A stretch of DNA of 64,000 nucleotides from an uncultured bacterium (GTDB lineage Bacteria > Patescibacteriota > Kazan-3B-28). Of the stretch, positions 1 through 55,897 are shown in pieces (the stretch's first letter is position 1; each line of letters begins with the position of its first letter). The notes below the pieces were generated by a model that was not told the DNA's origin, did no database searches, and saw only the letters and a list, made by a program, of their open reading frames with translations. The DNA is taken from positions 280,004 to 344,003 of the forward strand of contig OY968788.1 in the NCBI GenBank assembly GCA_963695435.1. The letters run 5' to 3'. The position numbers and the translations under genes are program-made.

Positions 1-2042
1 AGCCGAGACATTTTTCGTTTAATAGTCCGCATGGCGCTTGTCCAAAATGTACGGGGCTAGGGGTAACAATGGAACTCGATTCAGAACTTTTGATGCCCAA
101 TAAAAAATTGAGTATTACCGAAGGAGCAATTCGTCCATGGGGTGCGCATATGGTAAGCGGAGGAGGATGGAATAATCGAATTCTGGAAGCGGTAGCGCGC
201 AGATTTAAATTTGATATCAATGTTCCGGTTGAAAAATTGAGTAAGGAAGCGATGAAGATTATTTTGTATGGCAGCGGAGACGAAGAAGTAGTGGTGAAGT
301 ACCAGACTCCTCACGGAAAGACAAATGAATATGTGGTGAAGTTTGAGGGAGTAACCCCGAACTTGATGCGCCGATACAAAGAGACTGATTCTGACTTTAT
401 TCGGGCGGAAATTGAACAATATATGACAAGCAAAGTTTGTCCCGAGTGCCACGGTAGTCGGTTGAAACCGGAAGTGCTGGCGGTAACGGTGGGGGATAAA
501 TCGATTGTTGATGTATCGACATTGCCGATTCATGGTGCGGCGGATTTTTTTGAAAATCTCAAATTATCGACACAGGATAAATTGATTGTGAAGCAAGTTT
601 TGAAAGAAGTTTCCGAACGACTCGGGTTTTTGCACAATGTGGGGTTGGATTATCTGACGCTTGATCGTTCGGCAAATACGCTATCTGGCGGAGAAGCGCA
701 AAGAATTCGCTTAGCTACTCAAATCGGTTCAGGGCTCTCGGGTGTGATTTACATATTGGATGAGCCTTCGATTGGTTTGCATCAGCACGACAATCGCCGA
801 CTGATCCAAACTTTGATGGGGCTAAGAGATTTGGGCAATACAGTTTTGGTAGTGGAGCATGATGAGGAAACTATTCGCTCAAGTGATTGGGTGATTGATG
901 TGGGGCCTTATGCTGGCAAACAAGGCGGTGAATTGGTGGCGGAGGGTACGCCTGAACAAATTGCTAAAAACAAGCGTTCTTTGACCGGTCAGTATTTAGC
1001 GGGAACGAAGAGAATTGATGTGCCGAAAAAGCGCAGAATACCAAATGGGAAGTGGTTGGAAATAAAAGGAGCGTCCGAATTTAATCTAAAAAATCTTGAT
1101 GTAAAACTGCCGTTGCAAACATTTGTGTGTGTAACGGGACTTTCTGGTTCGGGGAAATCCACACTGGTAAACGAGATTTTGGCAAAGCGATTGGCGCATG
1201 ATTTTTATGGTGCGCATGAACAGGCGGGAGCGCACAAGTCGATAGAAGGAATTAGTTATTTGGATAAAGTAATCAGCATTGACCAATCGCCAATCGGCAG
1301 AAGTCCGCGAAGCAATCCCGCAACTTACACAGGATTGTTTACTTACATTCGGGATTTGTTTACTCAACTTCCTGAATCGAAGATGCGCGGTTTCAAACAG
1401 GGCAGATTTTCTTTTAATGTAAAAGGTGGTCGTTGTGAAAACTGTCGTGGAGATGGGGTGAATAAAATTGAAATGCATTTCCTGCCTGATGTTTATGTTC
1501 CTTGCGAAGTTTGTGAAGGAAGACGCTACAATCAAGAAACTTTATCAATTCATTACAAAGGAAAAAACATTGCAGATGTTTTGGATTTGACGGTGGATGA
1601 TGCGGCAGAGTTTTTTGCTAATATTCCACCGATAAAAAACAAGTTGGATACTTTACAGGAAGTAGGTCTTGGGTATATCAAACTTGGACAACCCGCTACC
1701 CAACTTTCTGGCGGCGAAGCGCAACGCGTGAAATTAGCTACCGAACTTTCTCGCCGAGCTACAGGTAAAACTTTATATATTCTGGACGAGCCGACAACTG
1801 GTTTACATTTTGAAGACACTAAAAAACTTTTGGAAGTACTCCACAGATTAGTCAATAAAGGAAATTCGGTAGTAGTTATTGAACACAATCTGGATGTAAT
1901 CAAAACAGCAGACTGGATTATCGATTTAGGACCTGAAGGCGGAGATAAGGGCGGTGAGATTGTGGCAGAAGGCACTCCTGAACAAGTGGCGAAGATAAAG
2001 AAGTCTTATACGGGACAATATCTGGTGAAGGTCCTGAAATAA
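1..2042 (+). CDS. uvrA: Excinuclease ABC subunit A, C-terminal about 680 aa; the 5' end lies upstream of the window
   Basis: The zinc-finger CPKCTGLG is encoded at nt 30-60, ahead of the first ATG of the ORF. ABC signatures [12 protein letters not shown] and [12 protein letters not shown], a Walker [10 protein letters not shown] and a UvrA-specific linker are all present. Confidence 0.9.
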
Positions 2043-2334: not shown

Positions 2335-4164
2335 ATGGCAATCAATTCAAAACTAGTTCTAAAAAGCGCTCCGACTCGCCCCGGAGTGTATTTGATGAAG
2401 GATAAAACCAAAAAAGTAATTTATGTAGGCAAAGCAAAAAATATTAAAAAAAGATTGGCGAGTTATTTTTCTAAGCAGGGCAAGTCGCCAAAAACAATTG
2501 CGCTGATGGAGAGAGTCCATAAAATTGAGACTATTGCGGTGACGAGTGAAACAGAGGCATTCTTGCTTGAAAATGAATTGATAAAAAAATATCGTCCGCA
2601 ATTCAATATCATAATGCGGGACGACAAAAACTATTTATATATTCGAATTACTGTAAACGAAGAATTCCCGCGTATTTTATTAGCGAGACAGGTAGCTAGG
2701 GATGGGGCAAAATATTTTGGGCCGTATGCGGTTTCGGGACAGGTCTATGAAGGGTTAAGACTAATCAAGCGGATATTCCCCTTGTGTAGCGCTACCCAAT
2801 CAATCACTACGGCTGGCTTGAAAAAGGGACAAAATCGAGCCTGTTTAAATTATCACCTGAAAATTTGTCCGGGAGTCTGTGTCGGCAAAGTGAAGTCAAA
2901 AGATTATCACAAAACTATAGAGCAAGTGATGCGGTTTTTGCACGGTAACTATGATTCAGTTATCAAACAGCTTAGAGAGCAGATGCGGGAACTATCCGCA
3001 AATAGGGAATATGAACGAGCAGCGCGAATTCGCGATGGTTTGAAAGCGATCGAAGCAATCAATGAAAGACAAAGCGTGGTAAAAACCAATTTATCCGTTA
3101 GTGAGGATGCAATTGGTGTGGCCAGGTCTCTTAATAAAGCTATGGTGATCCTTTTGCAGATTCGGTCGGGCAAATTGCTAAATCAACAGCAATACGCAGT
3201 TGATACAAAATACGAAACAGAGGTTCCTGAAATTTTAGAGGGATTTTTGCGGGATTATTACGAAGGAGCGGCTGATTTGCCAAAAACTATCTTGTTGCCG
3301 GAGGCGGTTGAAAGCACAAAGAGTTTTGAAAAATGGTTGAAAGATAAAACTGGAAAAAGAATTGAACTAATTGCTCCGACAAAAGGGAGACAGAGATCAA
3401 TTGTTCGGTTGGCGGAATCAAATGCGCAAATGAAATTCAATCAAATCTCCGGAAGATGGAAGTTGGAAAAATTAGTTTCCACCGAAGGAGTGGAAGGGCT
3501 AAGGAATATTTTGAAATTGAAAAAACTTGAACGGGTTGAAGCATATGATATCTCTAACCTTCAAGGGACGGATTCGGTGGGCGCGATGGTGGTGTGGGAA
3601 AAAGGACAATTAGATAAAAAACAATATCGCCGTTTCAAAATAAAAACCGTTATTGGCCCCAATGATTTTGCGAGTCTAGCTGAAGTTTTGCAGAGGAGAT
3701 TTGCGCATCAAAAGGGAGATGATAAATTCGCGAGTTTGCCGGATGTAGTGCTGATTGACGGAGGGAAAGGGCAGGTGAGTACAATTACAAAAGCGCTGAA
3801 GAAGTATAAAGTTGCAATCATTGGAATTGCGAAAGGAAGCCACAGTCGGACGAAAGCAAAAGACGATTTGGTTTTGCCAAGCGGGAAAATAGAAATTTTA
3901 CCCGATAATTCACCAACCAAAATTTTATTACAGAATATTCGCGACGAAGTTCACCGTTTTGCGATTGCTTATCACACCAGTCTCCGCAAAAAACGAACAA
4001 CGACTTCGGGGATAGAAAAAGTTTCTGGTGTTGGGGCGGTAACGCGCAAAAAACTAATCAAGGCGTTCGGTTCAATGGCGGCAGTCAAAAGAGCAAACGC
4101 ATCAGAAATTGCCCGAATAATCGGGGCGGAACGGGCATTACGCATTAAGCGAGATTTAGGCTAG
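2335..4164 (+). CDS. uvrC: Excinuclease ABC subunit C
   Basis: N-terminal GIY-YIG motif (GVYLMKD...IYVGKAKNIKKRL), a UvrBC-interaction region and a C-terminal RNaseH-like/HhH region. The ATG at 2335 gives about 609 aa; the ORF-track start at 2134 is probably an artificial N-terminal extension. Confidence 0.88.
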   Translation: MAINSKLVLKSAPTRPGVYLMKDKTKKVIYVGKAKNIKKRLASYFSKQGKSPKTIALMERVHKIETIAVTSETEAFLLENELIKKYRPQFNIIMRDDKNYLYIRITVNEEFPRILLARQVARDGAKYFGPYAVSGQVYEGLRLIKRIFPLCSATQSITTAGLKKGQNRACLNYHLKICPGVCVGKVKSKDYHKTIEQVMRFLHGNYDSVIKQLREQMRELSANREYERAARIRDGLKAIEAINERQSVVKTNLSVSEDAIGVARSLNKAMVILLQIRSGKLLNQQQYAVDTKYETEVPEILEGFLRDYYEGAADLPKTILLPEAVESTKSFEKWLKDKTGKRIELIAPTKGRQRSIVRLAESNAQMKFNQISGRWKLEKLVSTEGVEGLRNILKLKKLERVEAYDISNLQGTDSVGAMVVWEKGQLDKKQYRRFKIKTVIGPNDFASLAEVLQRRFAHQKGDDKFASLPDVVLIDGGKGQVSTITKALKKYKVAIIGIAKGSHSRTKAKDDLVLPSGKIEILPDNSPTKILLQNIRDEVHRFAIAYHTSLRKKRTTTSGIEKVSGVGAVTRKKLIKAFGSMAAVKRANASEIARIIGAERALRIKRDLG

Positions 4165-4550
4165 ATAGCTATGCGGTGGCTGTCGCTGTCGAAATGTTGG
4201 GTAGAAAATTCAAACAAGTGAGCTTCTTTTGTGAGAGCAGTAAAGCGATGAACGCTGTTGGGTTTCAGAATTATCGCCCCATTTTCACCAAGTTCAAAGC
4301 TTTCTTTAATAATCGGCGGATTATGTTTGGCATCTTTTAGAGTGGTCAGTTCTACTCTCAATCGGCCATGTGTTACATAAAAAGTTTCAGTTTTGAGTTT
4401 GTGATAATGTAAACTGCAGTGTTTGCCTTTTTTCACGATTAATAATTTTCCGCAATACAGTTTGTCATTGTGAACCCATCGTTCTTCGCCCCAAACTTTT
4501 GGGACGATTTTGATGGGTTCGTTGCGGCGTAAACCATTTTTCTTTGGCAT
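4161..4550 (-). CDS. Cupin-fold protein
   Basis: Cupin motifs G(X)5HXH and WGEERW are present, with HYH...TETFYV. Its stop overlaps the uvrC stop in a convergent arrangement. Confidence 0.55.
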   Translation of the reverse strand: MPKKNGLRRNEPIKIVPKVWGEERWVHNDKLYCGKLLIVKKGKHCSLHYHKLKTETFYVTHGRLRVELTTLKDAKHNPPIIKESFELGENGAIILKPNSVHRFTALTKEAHLFEFSTQHFDSDSHRIAI

Positions 4551-4606
4551 AACAACATTGTACTACTCGGTTGCGTTAGGGAGGGTTTACGGGATAACAT
4601 AGGAGC

Positions 4607-4885
4607 ATGAACGACCAAGCGATAAAGACAGCAGGGGTAATTGCCGGCATTGTCGTGGTGCTGGGGATTTTAGCGATTGGGGCACAGTACTGGTCAAGTA
4701 TAAGTGGGGGAGCGAGCGCGCAGGTGATTGATCCGGGTCAGCTGCCTAATAGTTTGCAGGTTTCCAAAGAAGATTACATAACGCTACAGTCACTTTTGGA
4801 TCGTTATGCTTCGGTTAGTGATTTGGCCACAAAAAACCAAATTATGCAGGATTTTCGAGTTATTTTCGACGGTTTGTCGCAATAA
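4607..4885 (+). CDS. Small membrane-anchored protein, hypothetical
   Basis: 92 aa with one N-terminal hydrophobic helix (AGVIAGIVVVLGILAIGA). Confidence 0.4.
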   Translation: MNDQAIKTAGVIAGIVVVLGILAIGAQYWSSISGGASAQVIDPGQLPNSLQVSKEDYITLQSLLDRYASVSDLATKNQIMQDFRVIFDGLSQ

Positions 4886-4905
4886 GTCAGTTTCAATTGG
4901 GGGCT

Positions 4906-4931
4906 ATTCCGCCATAGGAGCGGATTTTTTG
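4906..4931 (+). terminator. Weak intrinsic terminator
   Basis: tccgc-loop-gcgga stem followed by TTTTTTG. Confidence 0.3.
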
Positions 4932-4966
4932 AGTTATCCACATTAGTCTAAAAAGTCTATTGACCG

Positions 4967-4995
4967 TTGACAAATAAAGCGTTGTATGATATAAT
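4967..4995 (+). promoter_or_regulatory. Consensus sigma-70 promoter TTGACA-17-TATAAT
   Basis: ttgaca at 4967-4972, a 17-nt spacer, then tataat at 4990-4995. It lies about 30 nt upstream of the 5028 start. Confidence 0.5.
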
Positions 4996-5027
4996 CAAAG
5001 TAAATGAGGGGGTTGAGGAGAAACCCA

Positions 5028-6161
5028 ATGGAGGAAAACAACCACAATCAGGAGGACCCCGGTTCTGTCATCAAGTCAATTATGGTGGAGCAGGAGGAAA
5101 AGACCCGCGAAGCGTTGGATCCTTTGATGGTAGTAATCAGCGCTGTCAACTCGCTTAAGGATCGTGAGCGGGAAGTTTTGCTTGGACGATTTGGGTTAGA
5201 AGACGGTAACAAGATGACTTTGGAAGCGGTCGGTTCTAAATTTGGCGTTACGCGCGAAAGAGCCCGCCAGATTGAAAATTCCGCTATCAAAAAGCTGACC
5301 GAGAAACCGACCAAGGACTTGGCTAAACTTACGAAGATAACAAATAGCTATTTGGTAGAAATGGGTGGGGTAGCATCACTTATTGGATTGGCGGATTACT
5401 TTAAGATTGGGAGCGACCAAAGACGGGAAGCAGAATTGAACGCCTTGAAGCTCACGATGGCGCTGGATAGTAATGTTGTTAGTCTTCCCAAAGAAGATAA
5501 TTTGCGTGTTGGTTGGGCAAAAAAGAATGCGCCAACAGGATTGATAAATAAAGTATTGGTTGAATTAGAAAAAATCTTGGCGGATGCGGGTAAGCCAGCC
5601 AAGGAAGAATTTTTGTGGGAAAAACTAACCCAGACCGCGGTTTATGGTGAGAACAGCACGCGGTTGACCCCGAGTATTGTTCACGGGATTTTATTGGTGG
5701 GCGCAAAATTAGCGCGGACTGATGTCGGCGATTGGGGGTTGATCTCATGGCCAACGGTAGTGCCAAAAAGAATTCGCGACAAAATATTTCTAATATTACA
5801 AAAGGTAGGCAAGCCGATGCACTTCCGCGAGATTGCTGATGCGATTAATCAAACTTTCCCTGGTAAGACGGTTTTGAGCAGAACAGTTCATAATGAATTG
5901 ATTGGTGATAATCGATTTGTGTTGGTGGGCCGAGGAATTTATGGTTTGAAGGAGCAGGGATATCAGCCGGGAGTAGTTGTGGATGTTATTGTAAAGGTTA
6001 TGAAGCAGGCGAATCGGCCGCTGACTACGGAAGAAACAATTGATATGGTTTTGAAGGAACGGCAGGTAAAGCGTAATACGGTAATTGCTAATTTGCAGAA
6101 TAAGAAGTTGTTCAGAAAAGTTGGTAAAGGCAGCTACACTCTGAACGAACAGCCGAAATAA
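5028..6161 (+). CDS. Multi-HTH DNA-binding protein with an N-terminal sigma-70 region-4-like domain and two C-terminal HARE-HTH/winged-helix-like repeats
   Basis: [43 protein letters not shown] resembles sigma region 4.2. [12 protein letters not shown]...[12 protein letters not shown] and [12 protein letters not shown]...[11 protein letters not shown] follow the HARE-HTH pattern. An AGGAG lies 8 nt before the ATG at 5028. Confidence 0.65.
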
Positions 6162-6173
6162 TTTAACAATTTT

Positions 6174-10957
<4,784 letters not shown>

Positions 10958-16477: not shown

Positions 16478-18901
16478 ATGACAGGTTTGTATTTAGGATT
16501 GGGGGTGGTTATCGTATTGGCCGGTATCGGCTGGTTTTGGTTATCACAAAGAAAGTCAAAAAAAGGATCGGATGATGTAAGAAGTCGGGTGAATTTGATG
16601 ATTGCGGTTCCGCGACCGAAAGAGGAACAACAAGCGCCGGATATCAAGGCGATTATTGCGCCGATGGAAACTATTTTTAGTAATCTGGCGGGGATTGCTG
16701 ATGCGGTAGGAAATCGGCATCTAACTTTTGAAATTGCTACCGAACAGGAACTAATTAGTTTTTACGCGACTGTCCCTGTAGGTTTGGTAGATTTTTTAGA
16801 AAAACAAATTACTTCACAATATCCTGACGCAATCGTGGAGCGGGCGCCATACCCAAACTTTTTCCCGTCAGACGCGAAGATTGCCAGTGCTCAACTAGTG
16901 CTTAAAAAGGCAAATTATTTTCCAATTCGTACTTACGCCAATCTGCAGATTGATGGGCTTTCGGCGCTCACTAACGCAATGAGCAAGTTGGCTGATCAAG
17001 GGGCAGGAGCGGGGATTCAGATAATGTTTCGACCGATTGAAAGTAAGCAATGGACGAAACAAGCTCACACGGCGGCAAAAAATTTGCAGCAGGGGAAGTC
17101 CAGTTCATCAATTGGTGAAGGGGTTATGAAGGGGTTGGGTGATTTGGTGACACCGACAAATAAAGACGGAAAACAGCCAGAAAATAAAGCAATTACTGCC
17201 GGGCAGGAGGATGTTGTACGGGCAATCGAAAGTAAGGCCTCAAAATCAGGATTTGAGACGGTGATTCGGTTAGTTACAACCGCGCCTGATGAAAATCAAG
17301 CAAGAAGCCATCTAAGAACATTGATTGATAGTTTTTTGCAGTTCAATGCGCCTGAACTGAATGGTTTGACGGTGGCGAAATATCCCGAGATAGAAGTTTT
17401 GAAAGATTACATTTTGCGTCAGTTTGGTGACCCGCGAAATTCATTTATTTTTAATACAGAAGAATTAGCGACAGTTTTTCATTTGCCGGGGCTAAAAACA
17501 GAGACGCCAAATATTCGTTGGCTGAAAGCGAAGCGTTTGCCCGCTCCTGATAATTTGCCGAAGCAGGGGATTCTCTTAGGGAAAAATGTTTATCGGGGCA
17601 TGGAAAAGCCAATCAGAATGGAGACCGATGACAGGCGCAGACACATTTATGTAATTGGTAAGACTGGTACAGGTAAAACAACTTGGATGCAAAACATGGC
17701 GTTGCAGGATATCAATACAGGCGAAGGTGTTTGTGTAATCGACCCACACGGTGACATGATTGAGTGGCTTTTGCAGAGAATTCCGAAAGAACGGGTTGAT
17801 GATGTGATTCACTTTTATCCGCCTGATACAGAGAGGCCTTTAGGGCTGAATTTGCTGGAAGCAACAACTCCTGCCGAAAAAGATATGGTAGTTTCGGAAA
17901 TGATTGCTATCTTTTACAAATTGTTTGATCCGAACAGTGCGGGGATTGTCGGACCGATTTTTGAACACTATATGCGCAATGCGATGCTTCTGTTGTTGGC
18001 GGATGAAACAGGAGCCACACTAATTGATATCCCCAGAGTATTTACGGACAAGGCTTTTCGGGAGGCGAAACTCGTCAATGTGACCGATCCGACTGTTTTA
18101 CGATTCTGGAAAGAAGAATTCGCCCAAGCAGAAAAAAGTAATCAGGTAGGGGAGTTGTTCTCCTATATCATCAGTAAAATTGGACGATTTATCAGTAACG
18201 AAATGATGCGCAATATTGTTGGACAAGCGAAAAGTTCGTTCGACATTCGCAACATAATGGATAGCAAAAAGATTTTGCTGGTGAATTTGGCAAAAGGTTT
18301 GACTGGCGAAATAAATAGCAACTTGCTTGGGTTTATTATGGTATCCAAGATGCAGATGGCAGCTCTTTCCCGCGCTGATATGGCGGAGAACTCCCGTAAT
18401 GACTTCTATTTGTATATTGATGAGTTCCAAAATGTGACAACGGAATCGATTGCCACTATTTTGTCGGAAGCAAGAAAATATCGGTTGAATTTGATTATTG
18501 CGCACCAATTTGTGGCACAGTTGGATGAAAAGATTCGTGATGCTGTGTTTGGCAATGTCGGCTCGCTGGTTGCTTTTACAATCGGTGCGCCTGACGCTGA
18601 AACAATCGGAAAACAATTTGAGCCCGATGTCAGCCAAAACGATTTGATAAATATCGAAAACAGAAATGCTTATGTGAAGCTGATGATTGACGGGATGGTG
18701 AGTCGGCCGTTTACTATGCAGGCGCCGCCGCCGATGGGTCAGCCGAATATTAAAATTGGCGAGGCTATCAAACAACTGTCGCGGTTGAAGTTTGGCAAAG
18801 ACAAACGAATTGTTGAACGGCAGGTGGGTGAACGCATCAAATATACCCGCAATACAAACTTACCCGGAACGGGTTTACAGGGGCCCAATAATCAGGTATA
18901 A
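16478..18901 (+). CDS. Membrane-anchored VirD4/TraD/TraG-like (T4CP family) ATPase, paralog of 6174..8966
   Basis: N-terminal TM; Walker A GKTGTGKTT; DPHGDM; Walker B FYLYIDEFQNV; EARKYRLNLIIAHQFVAQL...VFGNVGSLVAF. The N-terminal domain is also conserved with the 6174 protein (GFETVIRLV / GFQTMIRII; ELATVFHLPG / ELASIYHLPN). Confidence 0.8.
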   Translation: MTGLYLGLGVVIVLAGIGWFWLSQRKSKKGSDDVRSRVNLMIAVPRPKEEQQAPDIKAIIAPMETIFSNLAGIADAVGNRHLTFEIATEQELISFYATVPVGLVDFLEKQITSQYPDAIVERAPYPNFFPSDAKIASAQLVLKKANYFPIRTYANLQIDGLSALTNAMSKLADQGAGAGIQIMFRPIESKQWTKQAHTAAKNLQQGKSSSSIGEGVMKGLGDLVTPTNKDGKQPENKAITAGQEDVVRAIESKASKSGFETVIRLVTTAPDENQARSHLRTLIDSFLQFNAPELNGLTVAKYPEIEVLKDYILRQFGDPRNSFIFNTEELATVFHLPGLKTETPNIRWLKAKRLPAPDNLPKQGILLGKNVYRGMEKPIRMETDDRRRHIYVIGKTGTGKTTWMQNMALQDINTGEGVCVIDPHGDMIEWLLQRIPKERVDDVIHFYPPDTERPLGLNLLEATTPAEKDMVVSEMIAIFYKLFDPNSAGIVGPIFEHYMRNAMLLLLADETGATLIDIPRVFTDKAFREAKLVNVTDPTVLRFWKEEFAQAEKSNQVGELFSYIISKIGRFISNEMMRNIVGQAKSSFDIRNIMDSKKILLVNLAKGLTGEINSNLLGFIMVSKMQMAALSRADMAENSRNDFYLYIDEFQNVTTESIATILSEARKYRLNLIIAHQFVAQLDEKIRDAVFGNVGSLVAFTIGAPDAETIGKQFEPDVSQNDLINIENRNAYVKLMIDGMVSRPFTMQAPPPMGQPNIKIGEAIKQLSRLKFGKDKRIVERQVGERIKYTRNTNLPGTGLQGPNNQV

Positions 18902-32986: not shown

Positions 32987-33244
32987 TTAGTGTCCTATTC
33001 CGCGCCACTGTCCCTGTTGTATTAACATTTTTGAATCTGTTGTGCCGTACCACCTTCCATCAGACCCAATAAAAATAATAGCGTCTTCAGGATTAATTCC
33101 TTTTGGATATAGAGGTCTGCCATCATGAAATGTAACCTCCCATATTTCGGAGGGTGGTTCAGTATCTATTTCTTGAGTTGTTGCTAATGATTCCGGTGCC
33201 CCCCCGTCAGATTCATCACGCAGTAAAAATGGAATTTCAAACAT
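32987..33244 (-). CDS. Small hypothetical protein
   Basis: 85-aa ORF 13 nt upstream of nfo. Confidence 0.35.
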   Translation of the reverse strand: MFEIPFLLRDESDGGAPESLATTQEIDTEPPSEIWEVTFHDGRPLYPKGINPEDAIIFIGSDGRWYGTTDSKMLIQQGQWRGIGH

Positions 33245-33312
33245 TATAGCTGGACTTTAGTATGCTTCTAGTGTATCAAATAGAGCAGTAATCGCTTGTA
33301 TAATAAACAAGA

Positions 33313-33387
33313 GGCGCCATCGTCTAACGGTTAGGACGCAAGATTCTCATTCTTGTAACCGGGGTTCGATTCCCCGTGGCGCTACCA
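33313..33387 (+). tRNA. tRNA-Glu (anticodon CUC), 3' CCA encoded
   Basis: Cloverleaf built by hand: acceptor ggcgcca/tggcgct, D stem gtct/ggac, anticodon stem caaga/tcttg with loop ttCTCat, T arm cgggg-ttcgatt-ccccg. Confidence 0.85.
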
Positions 33388-33595
33388 CGTCGAAATAAAC
33401 TCGACTTTACGCTAACACCCTCGACAGGCTCGGGGTTGCTTTTAGGTCTCGTTATTTCTCCTTTCAAAATCACAAACACTTCGTTGGTTTGCGATTTTGG
33501 TTGAAAAGAAGCACGGGGGTTCGTGCGTGAGACCGCTCTATAAATTTGTTGGGTTTACCCTAATGCGGCGAACGGCGGGGCCCCATAGCAATGGG

Positions 33596-33609
33596 GAAAC
33601 AATTCCCCG
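33596..33609. repeat. Partial direct duplication of the tRNA-Glu 3' end (ATTCCCCGTGGCGC)
   Basis: The 14-nt match to 33369-33382 lies about 210 bp downstream of the tRNA, an att-like signature. Confidence 0.5.
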
Positions 33610-33640
33610 TGGCGCCTATTTGCGATTTAGATTTGTATTA

Positions 33641-33675
33641 CAAAAACATCCGCCCTTTTGAGCGGATGTTTTGTT
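33641..33675. terminator. Bidirectional rho-independent terminator
   Basis: aacatccgc-ccttttga-gcggatgtt, a 9-bp stem flanked by AAAA on one side and TTTTG on the other. Confidence 0.6.
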
Positions 33676-33694
33676 ATTAAATCGAGTAAAGGGA

Positions 33695-33892
33695 TTATCC
33701 TTTGTAAAGAATTGGCAAACCAGTGCGAGCACTCTCTTTAATCTTGTAACCTGCTGGAACGGCATCAATGGCGTCCGCTTTGGCTTCTTTGCCAAAGTAG
33801 TAAATCCACTGTTTGCGTCCACCCTTCAATGTGACGTTCTTAGAGTGCAAGAAATATGTTGAACCCTTCTTGTTCTTGTAGCTGAATGCCAT
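33695..33892 (-). CDS. Small conserved-looking hypothetical protein
   Basis: 65 aa: MAFSYKNKKGSTYFLHSKNVTLKGGRKQWIYYFGKE...; followed by the terminator at 33641. Confidence 0.5.
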   Translation of the reverse strand: MAFSYKNKKGSTYFLHSKNVTLKGGRKQWIYYFGKEAKADAIDAVPAGYKIKESARTGLPILYKG

Positions 33893-55730: not shown

Positions 55731-55897
55731 CGCTCTCCACCAGATACGGTAATCTGTCGTAGTTAGTGTTTAATGTTTTATCGGGGTCCCCGAGGCAAAC
55801 CAACGAAGTGTTTGGCTTGGGGAGAGGAGAAATCCTTGAACCCCAAAAGGCGAGAAGAGAATACGCCTCGCCGTTAAAGTGAAAGGATTTAGACGAG

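Follow-up and report, generated by a model that had tools for sequence, protein, structure and literature searches.

A candidate portable 78-nt module within a displaced T-arm beside a tRNA-Glu gene of candidate division Kazan

What occupies the 3' side of the tRNA-Glu(CTC) gene in the 64-kb window studied here, the whole 64,000-nt stretch of contig OY968788.1 from an uncultured Kazan (Patescibacteria) bacterium? The gene is followed by a partial copy of its own 3' end, and a first-pass annotation had proposed an att-like scar or a small non-coding RNA (ncRNA). We put at roughly 0.5 the probability that mobile DNA has left a footprint of two layers at this tRNA-Glu integration hot spot, consisting of a displaced tRNA 3' end and a portable, non-autonomous element of 78 nt, here called the module. 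Loci from related genomes and metagenomes are cited by number (L002, L007 and so on).

The tRNA-Glu gene was confirmed by both ARAGORN and Rfam. The 14-mer ATTCCCCGTGGCGC from its 3' end occurs at exactly two sites in the window, 233 nt apart from start to start; the repeat is as real as the first-pass annotation held, but its second site had been placed 6 nt too far left, at 33596-33609. With two mismatches allowed there are still two sites, against a mean of 0.23 in shuffled sequences, 3 of 100 of which had at least two; an exact 14-mer repeat beside its own tRNA is far rarer than that frequency. The 14-mer is confined to these two sites in the window, so its distribution gives no reason to abandon the annotation. 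The repeat spans 18 nt in relatives (tRNA nt 59-76) and is preserved at 18/18 positions in L007 and at 15/15 in L056, where it follows tRNA-Leu(CAG); in the window 14/14 positions are kept and the ACCA of the distal copy has decayed to CTATT. Between the two copies lie 219 nt with no real open reading frame (ORF), and the 252-nt spacer (33388-33639) is ORF-less, as first described, apart from spurious ORFs of 42-54 aa.

A second T-loop-like sequence noticed earlier, GGGGGTTCG, is also genuine. It corresponds to ACGGGGGTTCG at 33513-33523, a direct repeat of ACCGGGGTTCG in the tRNA, and comprises the T-stem 5' strand GGGGG and the T-loop TTCG, ending at nt 57. The T-arm copy thus reads GGGGG-TTCG, then an insert, then ATT-CCCC and the acceptor strand. 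As the T-stem 5' strand with (T)TCG lies on the left and (A)TT with the T-stem 3' strand on the right, the module splits the T-arm copy, and it does so between T-loop nt 57 and 58.

Matches by nhmmer and covariance model (CM) reveal six copies of the module, in the window, L065, L007/L060, L062-64, L077 and L056; the CM search covered 35 loci and found no others. The module is single-copy in the window. The L065 copy (nfo identity 90%) is identical to that of the window at 77/78 positions, the L062-64 copy (80%) is divergent, the L077 copy (80%) is cut by a contig end, and the L007 copy, the same as L060 (72%; Kazan GW2011_GWA1_50_15), is followed by a perfect 18-nt distal repeat including ACCA. 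All of these, with the window copy and its 14/14-nt repeat, lie in tRNA-Glu remnants. The L056 copy, from the same genome as L007, lies in a remnant of tRNA-Leu(CAG), and the repeat after it is the 3' end of that Leu tRNA itself, TTCCTCTCTCGCCCA. The flanking repeat is therefore derived from the target, and the module is the portable part. In L001 (nfo identity 97%) the start of the 5' flank is visible before the contig ends.

The boundaries are sharp. On the 5' side (T)TCG borders 6/6 copies, and the right neighbour is (A)TT, followed by the T-stem 3' strand and the acceptor 3' strand. The junctions read AGGAG-TTCG and ATT-CTCC in L065, GGAAG-GTTCG and (AC)AC-TTCC in L007, TGGG-TTCG and TT-CCCC in L063, and GGGG-TCG and TT-CCTCT in L056; in L077, TTGGG-TTCG and the module are followed by the contig end. 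Comparison of the window with L065 gives identities of 77/78 for the module, 72/75 for the tRNA, 83% (nucleotide) for nfo, 44% for the 5' flank and 63% for the 3' flank; the 5' flank is unrelated and cassette-derived. The L063 and L007 modules are only 71-77% identical to the window module, while their tRNAs agree with that of the window at 74-75/75 positions. The distribution is patchy, neither presence of the module nor its similarity tracking nfo identity across ~27 syntenic tRNA-Glu loci. L014 carries a pseudo-tRNA 3' half of the L065 type with an uninterrupted T-arm, AGGAGTTCGATTCTCCT, and is the empty counterpart. A different insert, a hairpin of ~32 nt, occupies this T-loop position in a displaced tRNA-Glu fragment of L004. 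A small mobile insertion would be expected to leave just such sharp boundaries, empty sites and a pair of tRNA targets.

The four complete copies are 77, 78, 79 and 83 nt long, which rules out coding; no reading frame is kept across them, and gene callers called nothing over the module. Every copy has a right-end hairpin, P2, which ends 5 nt before the module does, whereas a left-end hairpin is found in L056 alone. RNAalifold and explicit pair counts gave 94.9% of cells paired, compared with 43-53% in slid-partner controls. Compensatory changes occur at three pairs, two in P2 (variants CCCCAU/AUGGGG, CCCCAC/GUGGGG and CCCUGC/GCAGGG) and one in the flanking T-stem, whose halves stay complementary (GGGG/CCCC vs GGAG/CUCC). 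In the four aligned copies the predicted stem P1 has all its pairs but does not vary; inspection by eye gives CUGC/GCAG for L077 and a perfect 9-bp stem for L063. Every copy has a TATAA(A/T/G) box 4-7 nt upstream of the invariant GTTGGGTTTACC. With four to six sequences to compare, these data are suggestive of a conserved structure.

The loci compared show that the 3' end of tRNA-Glu is a real integration site in relatives. In L002 (nfo identity 91%) the same native terminator follows the tRNA after 9 nt, an empty site, and L003 has an unrelated insert of ~480 nt between the two. In L070, L069 and L005 a convergent large serine recombinase gene abuts the tRNA 3' end, and the recombinase ends are homologous. 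The L070 element (3.4 kb, 3750-7310) encodes a 511-aa large serine recombinase with Resolvase and Recombinase domains and six small ORFs, and its far junction has a degenerate T-loop-to-CCA copy and then the native terminator; this junction lacks the module, and the element was rejected as the parent of the module. Foreign GC-rich DNA lies at the tRNA end in L067/L068 and is lacking in the sibling L066. In L065 and L066 a replacement tRNA is surrounded by nested pieces, both 5' and 3', of earlier tRNA-Glu genes. The first-pass annotation had proposed alignment with related genomes, and indel polymorphism at the site proves to be strong (L002 empty; ~480-nt insert in L003; integrated DNA in L070, L005 and L067), which counts in favour of its att-like reading. 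By the marks of an Islander-type search, then, the locus has an intact tRNA with a displaced 3' fragment (14/14, 18/18 and 15/15 nt in the window, L007 and L056) and an occupied/empty polymorphism (L002 empty, other inserts in L003, L067 and L070), and the bounded segment of 219 nt holds no real ORF and so no integrase.

The canonical copies (L001, L007, L063, L077 and L056) also have common DNA to the left of the module, namely a terminator hairpin of their own immediately 3' of ACCA, a reverse T-arm-like hairpin that has decayed, and a GAAG motif; by eye, the terminators of L007 (Glu) and L056 (Leu) are near-identical. Because this left part is common to them, a unit of ~150-175 nt between the 18-nt repeats may be what inserted. 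In the window, the terminator and reverse T-arm of the unit have been replaced by a Kazan-type tRNA trailer and a hairpin of a repeated family, both of which are also found between tRNAs in L076 and L080.

The two layers are read as follows. The first is a small insertion with the intact tRNA on one side and the displaced copy of the tRNA 3' end on the other, the native terminator now coming after the displaced copy. This copy would originally have been 18 nt long, from T-loop nt 59 to CCA; 14 nt are still identical in the window, and the CCA has decayed. The second layer, the conserved core, is the module, exactly between T-loop nt 57 and 58 of the displaced T-arm. It would be portable and non-autonomous, either a whole element or an element's cis-acting end, and the enzyme that moves it would have to be encoded elsewhere. 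A first guess at the mechanism would be hairpin-targeted single-strand insertion 3' of TTCG, of the HUH type seen with IS200/IS605 or repetitive extragenic palindromic (REP) sequences; a second would be that site-specific recombination takes place in the T-loop and the module serves as an att arm. All copies found occupy T-loops of tRNA copies that do not function, probably because insertion into a working tRNA would be lethal. The repeat, the split T-arm, the limits of the module, its two tRNA types, its patchy occurrence, an empty site and the compensatory changes in P2 are direct observations; mobility and mechanism are what we infer.

Several points weigh against this reading. Among 44 of the ~48 large window ORFs, Pfam scans detected neither an integrase (sought at the suggestion of the first-pass annotation) nor a transposase, reverse transcriptase or cas gene, and no transposase, integrase or reverse transcriptase lies next to the L007 copy. 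Neither an excised form nor an autonomous parent of the module was found, and pattern scans of viral contigs and metagenomes yielded no further copies; the metagenome scan gave 23 matches, two of them real and both in Kazan GW2011_GWA1_50_15. The two ends of the module, TGCGTGAG... and ...GGGGAAACA, do not form an inverted repeat, and the TTCG / ATT junction shows no duplication. Folding energy is unremarkable (z = 0.06 to -3.2 in the four complete modules). Only six copies are known, of which those linked to tRNA-Glu could partly share one ancestral insertion, and the ambiguous origin of the L065 3' flank (cassette or window-type site) weakens the case for independent insertions. Between the Glu and Leu sites the homology extends over the whole ~150-nt unit from terminator to module, a finding equally compatible with one Campbell-type cassette. 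Lastly, the high conservation of the module could reflect RNA function instead of mobility.

The last two points correspond to rival explanations. It is unlikely, in our estimate, that the module is a structured ncRNA, of the host or of an element, lying in the tRNA-Glu 3' trailer or transcribed from the internal TATAA(A/T/G) box. The 3' end of such an RNA would mimic a T-arm and acceptor strand, which might permit tRNA-like processing, stability or CCA addition. Consistent with this are the compensatory changes in P2, the predicted P1 arms, which at 27-45 nt apart are too distant for a dyad protein site, the invariant GTTGGGTTTACC loop with its upstream box in every copy, the location of all copies on the same strand as the tRNA, and the 99% identity between the window and L065 modules. 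In every copy the GGGG at the 3' end of the module is able to base-pair with the 3' strand of the T-stem, L007 has a T-arm mimic with ACCA, and the window has no strong terminator from the tRNA to 33636. However, the canonical copies do have a terminator between tRNA and module, and an internal promoter would remove the P1 5' strand; as a sigma-70 promoter the internal site was rejected, since its -10-like box is kept but is accompanied by no credible -35. The tRNA-like 3' flank has been free to decay (L065, L063), and in the Leu copy GGCGGGG of the module and the acceptor strand show no covariation. Downstream of the module each genome differs (terminator, rpoD, purA or tRNA), and close relatives lack the module, which is therefore dispensable. 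Rfam 15 (including tmRNA, YrlA and group I/II introns), run at gathering and permissive thresholds on the window and four homologous loci, returned only tRNA above threshold and no family for the module, nor for the rest of the window spacer, even at E<=10, and a known ncRNA was rejected. The earlier idea of a tRNA-derived ncRNA is one possibility; the flanks are tRNA-derived, the module itself is not.

A one-step miniature integrative cassette likewise has only a small chance of being the answer. The whole unit of ~150-215 nt would then be an integrase-less, attP-only element, comparable to a cis-mobilisable element, that entered Campbell-style at tRNA nt 59-76, with the module as its P-arm. 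The size of the unit is that of a typical attP, although a circle of ~170 bp would be a poor recombination substrate. The 18-nt repeat begins at the same tRNA position at the Glu and Leu targets, the unit is homologous at these two tRNA types in one genome, and it has its own terminator, the native one lying beyond the distal repeat; displaced tRNA fragments, moreover, are the accepted mark of tyrosine-integrase islands (PMC4383910; bioRxiv 10.1101/2020.12.28.424599). Against such a cassette, no integrase was seen in the window ORFs scanned or in the L007 neighbourhood, and the viral and metagenome scans found no full-length parent with the module. A cassette also leaves unexplained the T-stem 5' strand and TTCG immediately left of the module, the empty and filled T-loops of L014 and L065, and the 99%-identical module beside an unrelated left flank. 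We consider it highly improbable that the locus is a neutral relic, whether a tandem tRNA-Glu duplicate or an old, decaying attR scar, with the likeness among genomes due to common descent. The locus is full of tRNA fragments in L004, L014, L065 and L066, and the distal ACCA of the window has indeed decayed, but decay does not account for a module that is 99% identical between flanks of 44-63% identity, for compensatory changes in its stems, for its presence at a tRNA-Leu remnant or for a similarity that does not follow that of nfo. The att-like scar of the first-pass annotation accordingly survives in part: the repeat runs from the T-loop toward the 3' end, as displaced tRNA fragments do, but the enclosed DNA is more than a decaying remnant, its core being a discrete module inside the T-loop, better conserved than the tRNA between the window and L065 and found also at a tRNA-Leu(CAG) remnant.

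A more speculative proposal, quite unlikely on present evidence, is that of a T-arm-recognising bacterial mini-element that inserts at T-loop 57/58, a counterpart of archaeal tRNA-intron transposition, or of a tRNA-mimicking or guide-like RNA, made up of the hairpin, the 5-nt tail and 18 nt identical to a tRNA 3' end, that would itself guide where among tRNA genes it is targeted. The repeat of 18 nt (tRNA nt 59-76) is also the segment that retroviruses copy into the primer-binding site, which is recorded as a lead only, no reverse transcriptase having been seen.

Other candidates were tried and rejected. For phage origin, megablast of 8 kb against a phage collection gave nothing, and two viral-contig pattern scans gave chance matches only. 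For transfer-messenger RNA (tmRNA) or a permuted tRNA, ARAGORN found none, and the sole Rfam tmRNA_permuted match, at 14 bits, is the T-arm of the tRNA itself. The module is too small for a group I intron and has no Rfam intron match. For an archaeal-type bulge-helix-bulge (BHB) intron, the 3-4-3 motif could not be drawn by eye around TTCG/UGCG and AACA/AUU, and the tRNA copy lacks everything 5' of the T-stem. A clustered regularly interspaced short palindromic repeat (CRISPR) unit or guide RNA was dismissed, as P2 with its tail motif has a single occurrence in the window, the 14-mer is followed by no second repeat, and the ORFs scanned gave no Pfam match to cas genes. A miniature inverted-repeat transposable element would be at odds with the lack of terminal inverted repeats and of a target-site duplication. 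By eye, resemblances to an IHF site and to integron attC (GTTRRRY) are not conserved across copies.

Table 1. Features of the tRNA-Glu locus (window coordinates)
Feature	Position	Strand	Basis or remark
Extended -10-like box TGTATAAT, 8 nt 5' of tRNA	33297-33304	+	Read from sequence
tRNA-Glu(CTC), intact, encoded CCA, G1-U72 first pair	33313-33387	+	ARAGORN 33313-33387; Rfam 33313-33384, tRNA 62.7 bits
Proximal repeat copy, T-loop A58 to acceptor 3' strand	33369-33382	+	Sequence repeat search
Kazan-type tRNA 3' trailer, begins CGTCGAAAT; weak terminator-like hairpin 33419-33435 and T-run	33388-33464	+	Homologous trailers in relatives
Hairpin CAAAATCACAAAC-N9-GTTTGCGATTTTG, repeated hairpin family of Kazan tRNA spacers	33465-33499	+	Inverted repeat I3
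Split T-arm 5' half	33513-33523	+	Direct repeat D3
Conserved non-coding module, 78 nt	33524-33601	+	nhmmer and CM matches; alignment with relatives
P1, CCGC/GCGG	33533-33536 with 33565-33568	+	Predicted stem
TATAAA box	33539-33544	+	In P1 loop
Invariant GTTGGGTTTACC	33548-33559	+	In P1 loop
Hairpin P2, CCCCAT-AGCA-ATGGGG	33581-33596	+	Then tail AAACA
Distal repeat copy, split T-arm 3' half (ATT-CCCC) and acceptor 3' strand	33602-33615	+	Sequence repeat search
TTTGCGATTTAGATT, imperfect direct repeat of 33488-33502	33619-33633	+	Repeat D2, 87% identity
Native bidirectional terminator, common to convergent 65-aa gene	33636-33679		Inverted repeat I1

The neighbours of the locus in the window are housekeeping genes (der, dacA, class II aminoacyl-tRNA synthetase, nfo, dgkA and rpoD). 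Relatives of nfo place the host in candidate division Kazan / Patescibacteria, and the pairing of nfo with tRNA-Glu(CTC) is conserved in ~27 Kazan loci from the genomes and metagenomes fetched. Two small proteins flank the tRNA, of 85 aa (32987-33244, minus strand) and 65 aa (33695-33892, minus strand); both are kept across Kazan loci and match no Pfam family. The gene for the latter converges on the tRNA-Glu spacer, which ends in the strong hairpin of the native terminator. This terminator lies directly 3' of the tRNA in L002, the empty site, and 3' of the distal repeat in L065. The box TGTATAAT is probably the promoter of the tRNA-Glu transcription unit; it is retained in L002, L003 and L065, and was missed by a promoter consensus scan because it has no -35 match. 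Every tRNA-Glu(CTC) gene of L001-L017 has a G1-U72 wobble as first acceptor pair and an encoded CCA, and the decayed distal copy of the window would give G1-C72. At 6174-8966 and 16478-18901 the window encodes two large ATPases, whose VirD4/TraG/TrwB-type coupling-protein and HerA domains are weak, in what is otherwise a run of housekeeping genes.

To the left of the module, trailers homologous to that of the window follow tRNA-Glu in L076 and tRNA-Gly and tRNA-Cys in L080. The sequence CGTCGAAAT stands directly 3' of the encoded CCA of these Glu, Gly and Cys tRNAs (window 33388-33396; L076 440-451, minus strand; L080 ~5873-5885 and 6125-6136), with a variant, TGTCGAAAT, just after the tRNA in L003, which suggests a conserved 3' trailer or processing signal. 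A 20-nt exact copy of the 33465-33499 hairpin sequence is found at 55795-55814 on the minus strand, upstream of rpmA (the L27 gene, ~55.9 kb). Hairpins of the form AAAATCACAAAC-loop-GTTTGYGATTTT, often after ATTTCTCC, recur in tRNA spacers (L080 ~4620-4670, 6200-6250 and 6385-6415), and their lower stem has compensatory changes (AAAATC/GATTTT vs CCCCAAG/CTCGGGG). The family may consist of hairpins for processing or regulation, or of tiny repeat elements. A 15-nt imperfect repeat (33488-33502 and 33619-33633; TTTGCGATTT and 3 of the 5 nt after it) brackets the split T-arm and module, and an analogous flanking repeat is seen in L063 (CCGAAGGATGGG / CCGAAGGAGGATGGGG).

Rearranged tRNA genes were also encountered elsewhere. 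In L065 (3320-3690, minus strand), L066 (~1030-1340, minus strand), L014 and L004, a complete tRNA-Glu lies between GATTCT(T/C)CCGCC and GGCGGACTAACGCATTCTTG, the halves of a split anticodon stem-loop, outside which are fragments of older tRNA-Glu genes; it looks as if a tRNA-bearing cassette had inserted in the anticodon loop of a previous tRNA-Glu. In L070 (1563-1640) an 11-nt copy of the tRNA-Gln 3' end (CACCCCAGCCA) lies ~65 nt downstream of tRNA-Gln, and in L060 (7438-7490) a minihelix-like TATCGGG…GGGTTCGAACCCCGATACCA comes after tRNA-Gln. It seems common for Kazan genomes to have partial tRNA ends downstream of tRNAs. In the relative L080, compared for an empty counterpart of the Leu copy, the two Leu genes stand in a different order. 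The ~480-nt insert of L003 contains an 86-aa ORF (3264-3524, plus strand) with a sub-threshold resemblance to HicA toxin (13 bits, E 0.097).

Genomes of the candidate phyla radiation/Patescibacteria are tiny and thought to be poor in classical mobile elements; the tRNA-Glu locus is a busy recombination site despite this. For the phylum, a conserved 78-nt module found splitting a T-arm every time would represent a small non-autonomous element, or an RNA, of a new kind, and it could mark tRNA-linked genome plasticity in uncultured bacteria. If it is true that the module recognises T-loops, it would offer a bacterial handle on the spread of short inserts among tRNA genes. There is also a warning for annotation, as these genomes conceal structured, conserved DNA behind what reads as 'tRNA plus partial tRNA'.

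Among known systems, tRNA genes of archaea (Thermoproteales) contain transposed short introns at non-canonical positions, the T-loop included. The module resembles these in being a similarly short insert at the same position in different tRNAs, again in the T-loop. Unlike them, it is hosted by non-functional tRNA fragments beside an intact gene, and no BHB motif could be drawn; the splicing endonuclease is not known in bacteria. Insertions in tRNA loops are common in the same phylum, where group I introns, full ribozymes that are spliced, occupy the anticodon loop at 35/36 (PMC13011429). The 78-nt module, without an Rfam intron match, is unrelated to these. Displaced tRNA 3' fragments are known as attR remnants of tyrosine-integrase islands, both in the Islander catalogue and as tycheposon remnants in Prochlorococcus (PMC4383910; bioRxiv 10.1101/2020.12.28.424599). 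As at such islands, an intact tRNA is followed by a direct repeat from the T-loop, the hot spot has occupied and empty alleles, and partial tRNAs accumulate. In contrast to them, the Kazan segment is only ~150-220 nt long, without integrase or cargo, and its core module splits the T-arm copy at nt 57/58. Palindrome-associated transposable elements (PATEs), which are non-autonomous derivatives of IS200/IS605, and REP sequences, both moved by HUH/Y1 enzymes, differ from the module in other respects: no HUH transposase and no tnpA, RAYT or tnpB gene was seen in the 64-kb window, the copies occur in T-loops only, a specificity beyond a 4-nt target, and most lack a left-end hairpin. At 78 nt the module is also shorter than described PATEs. 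Like PATEs and REP sequences, however, it is small, non-coding and hairpin-bearing, lies 3' of (T)TCG and has no target duplication of its own; its P2 hairpin stands 5 nt from the right end, and the L056 copy has hairpins at both ends.

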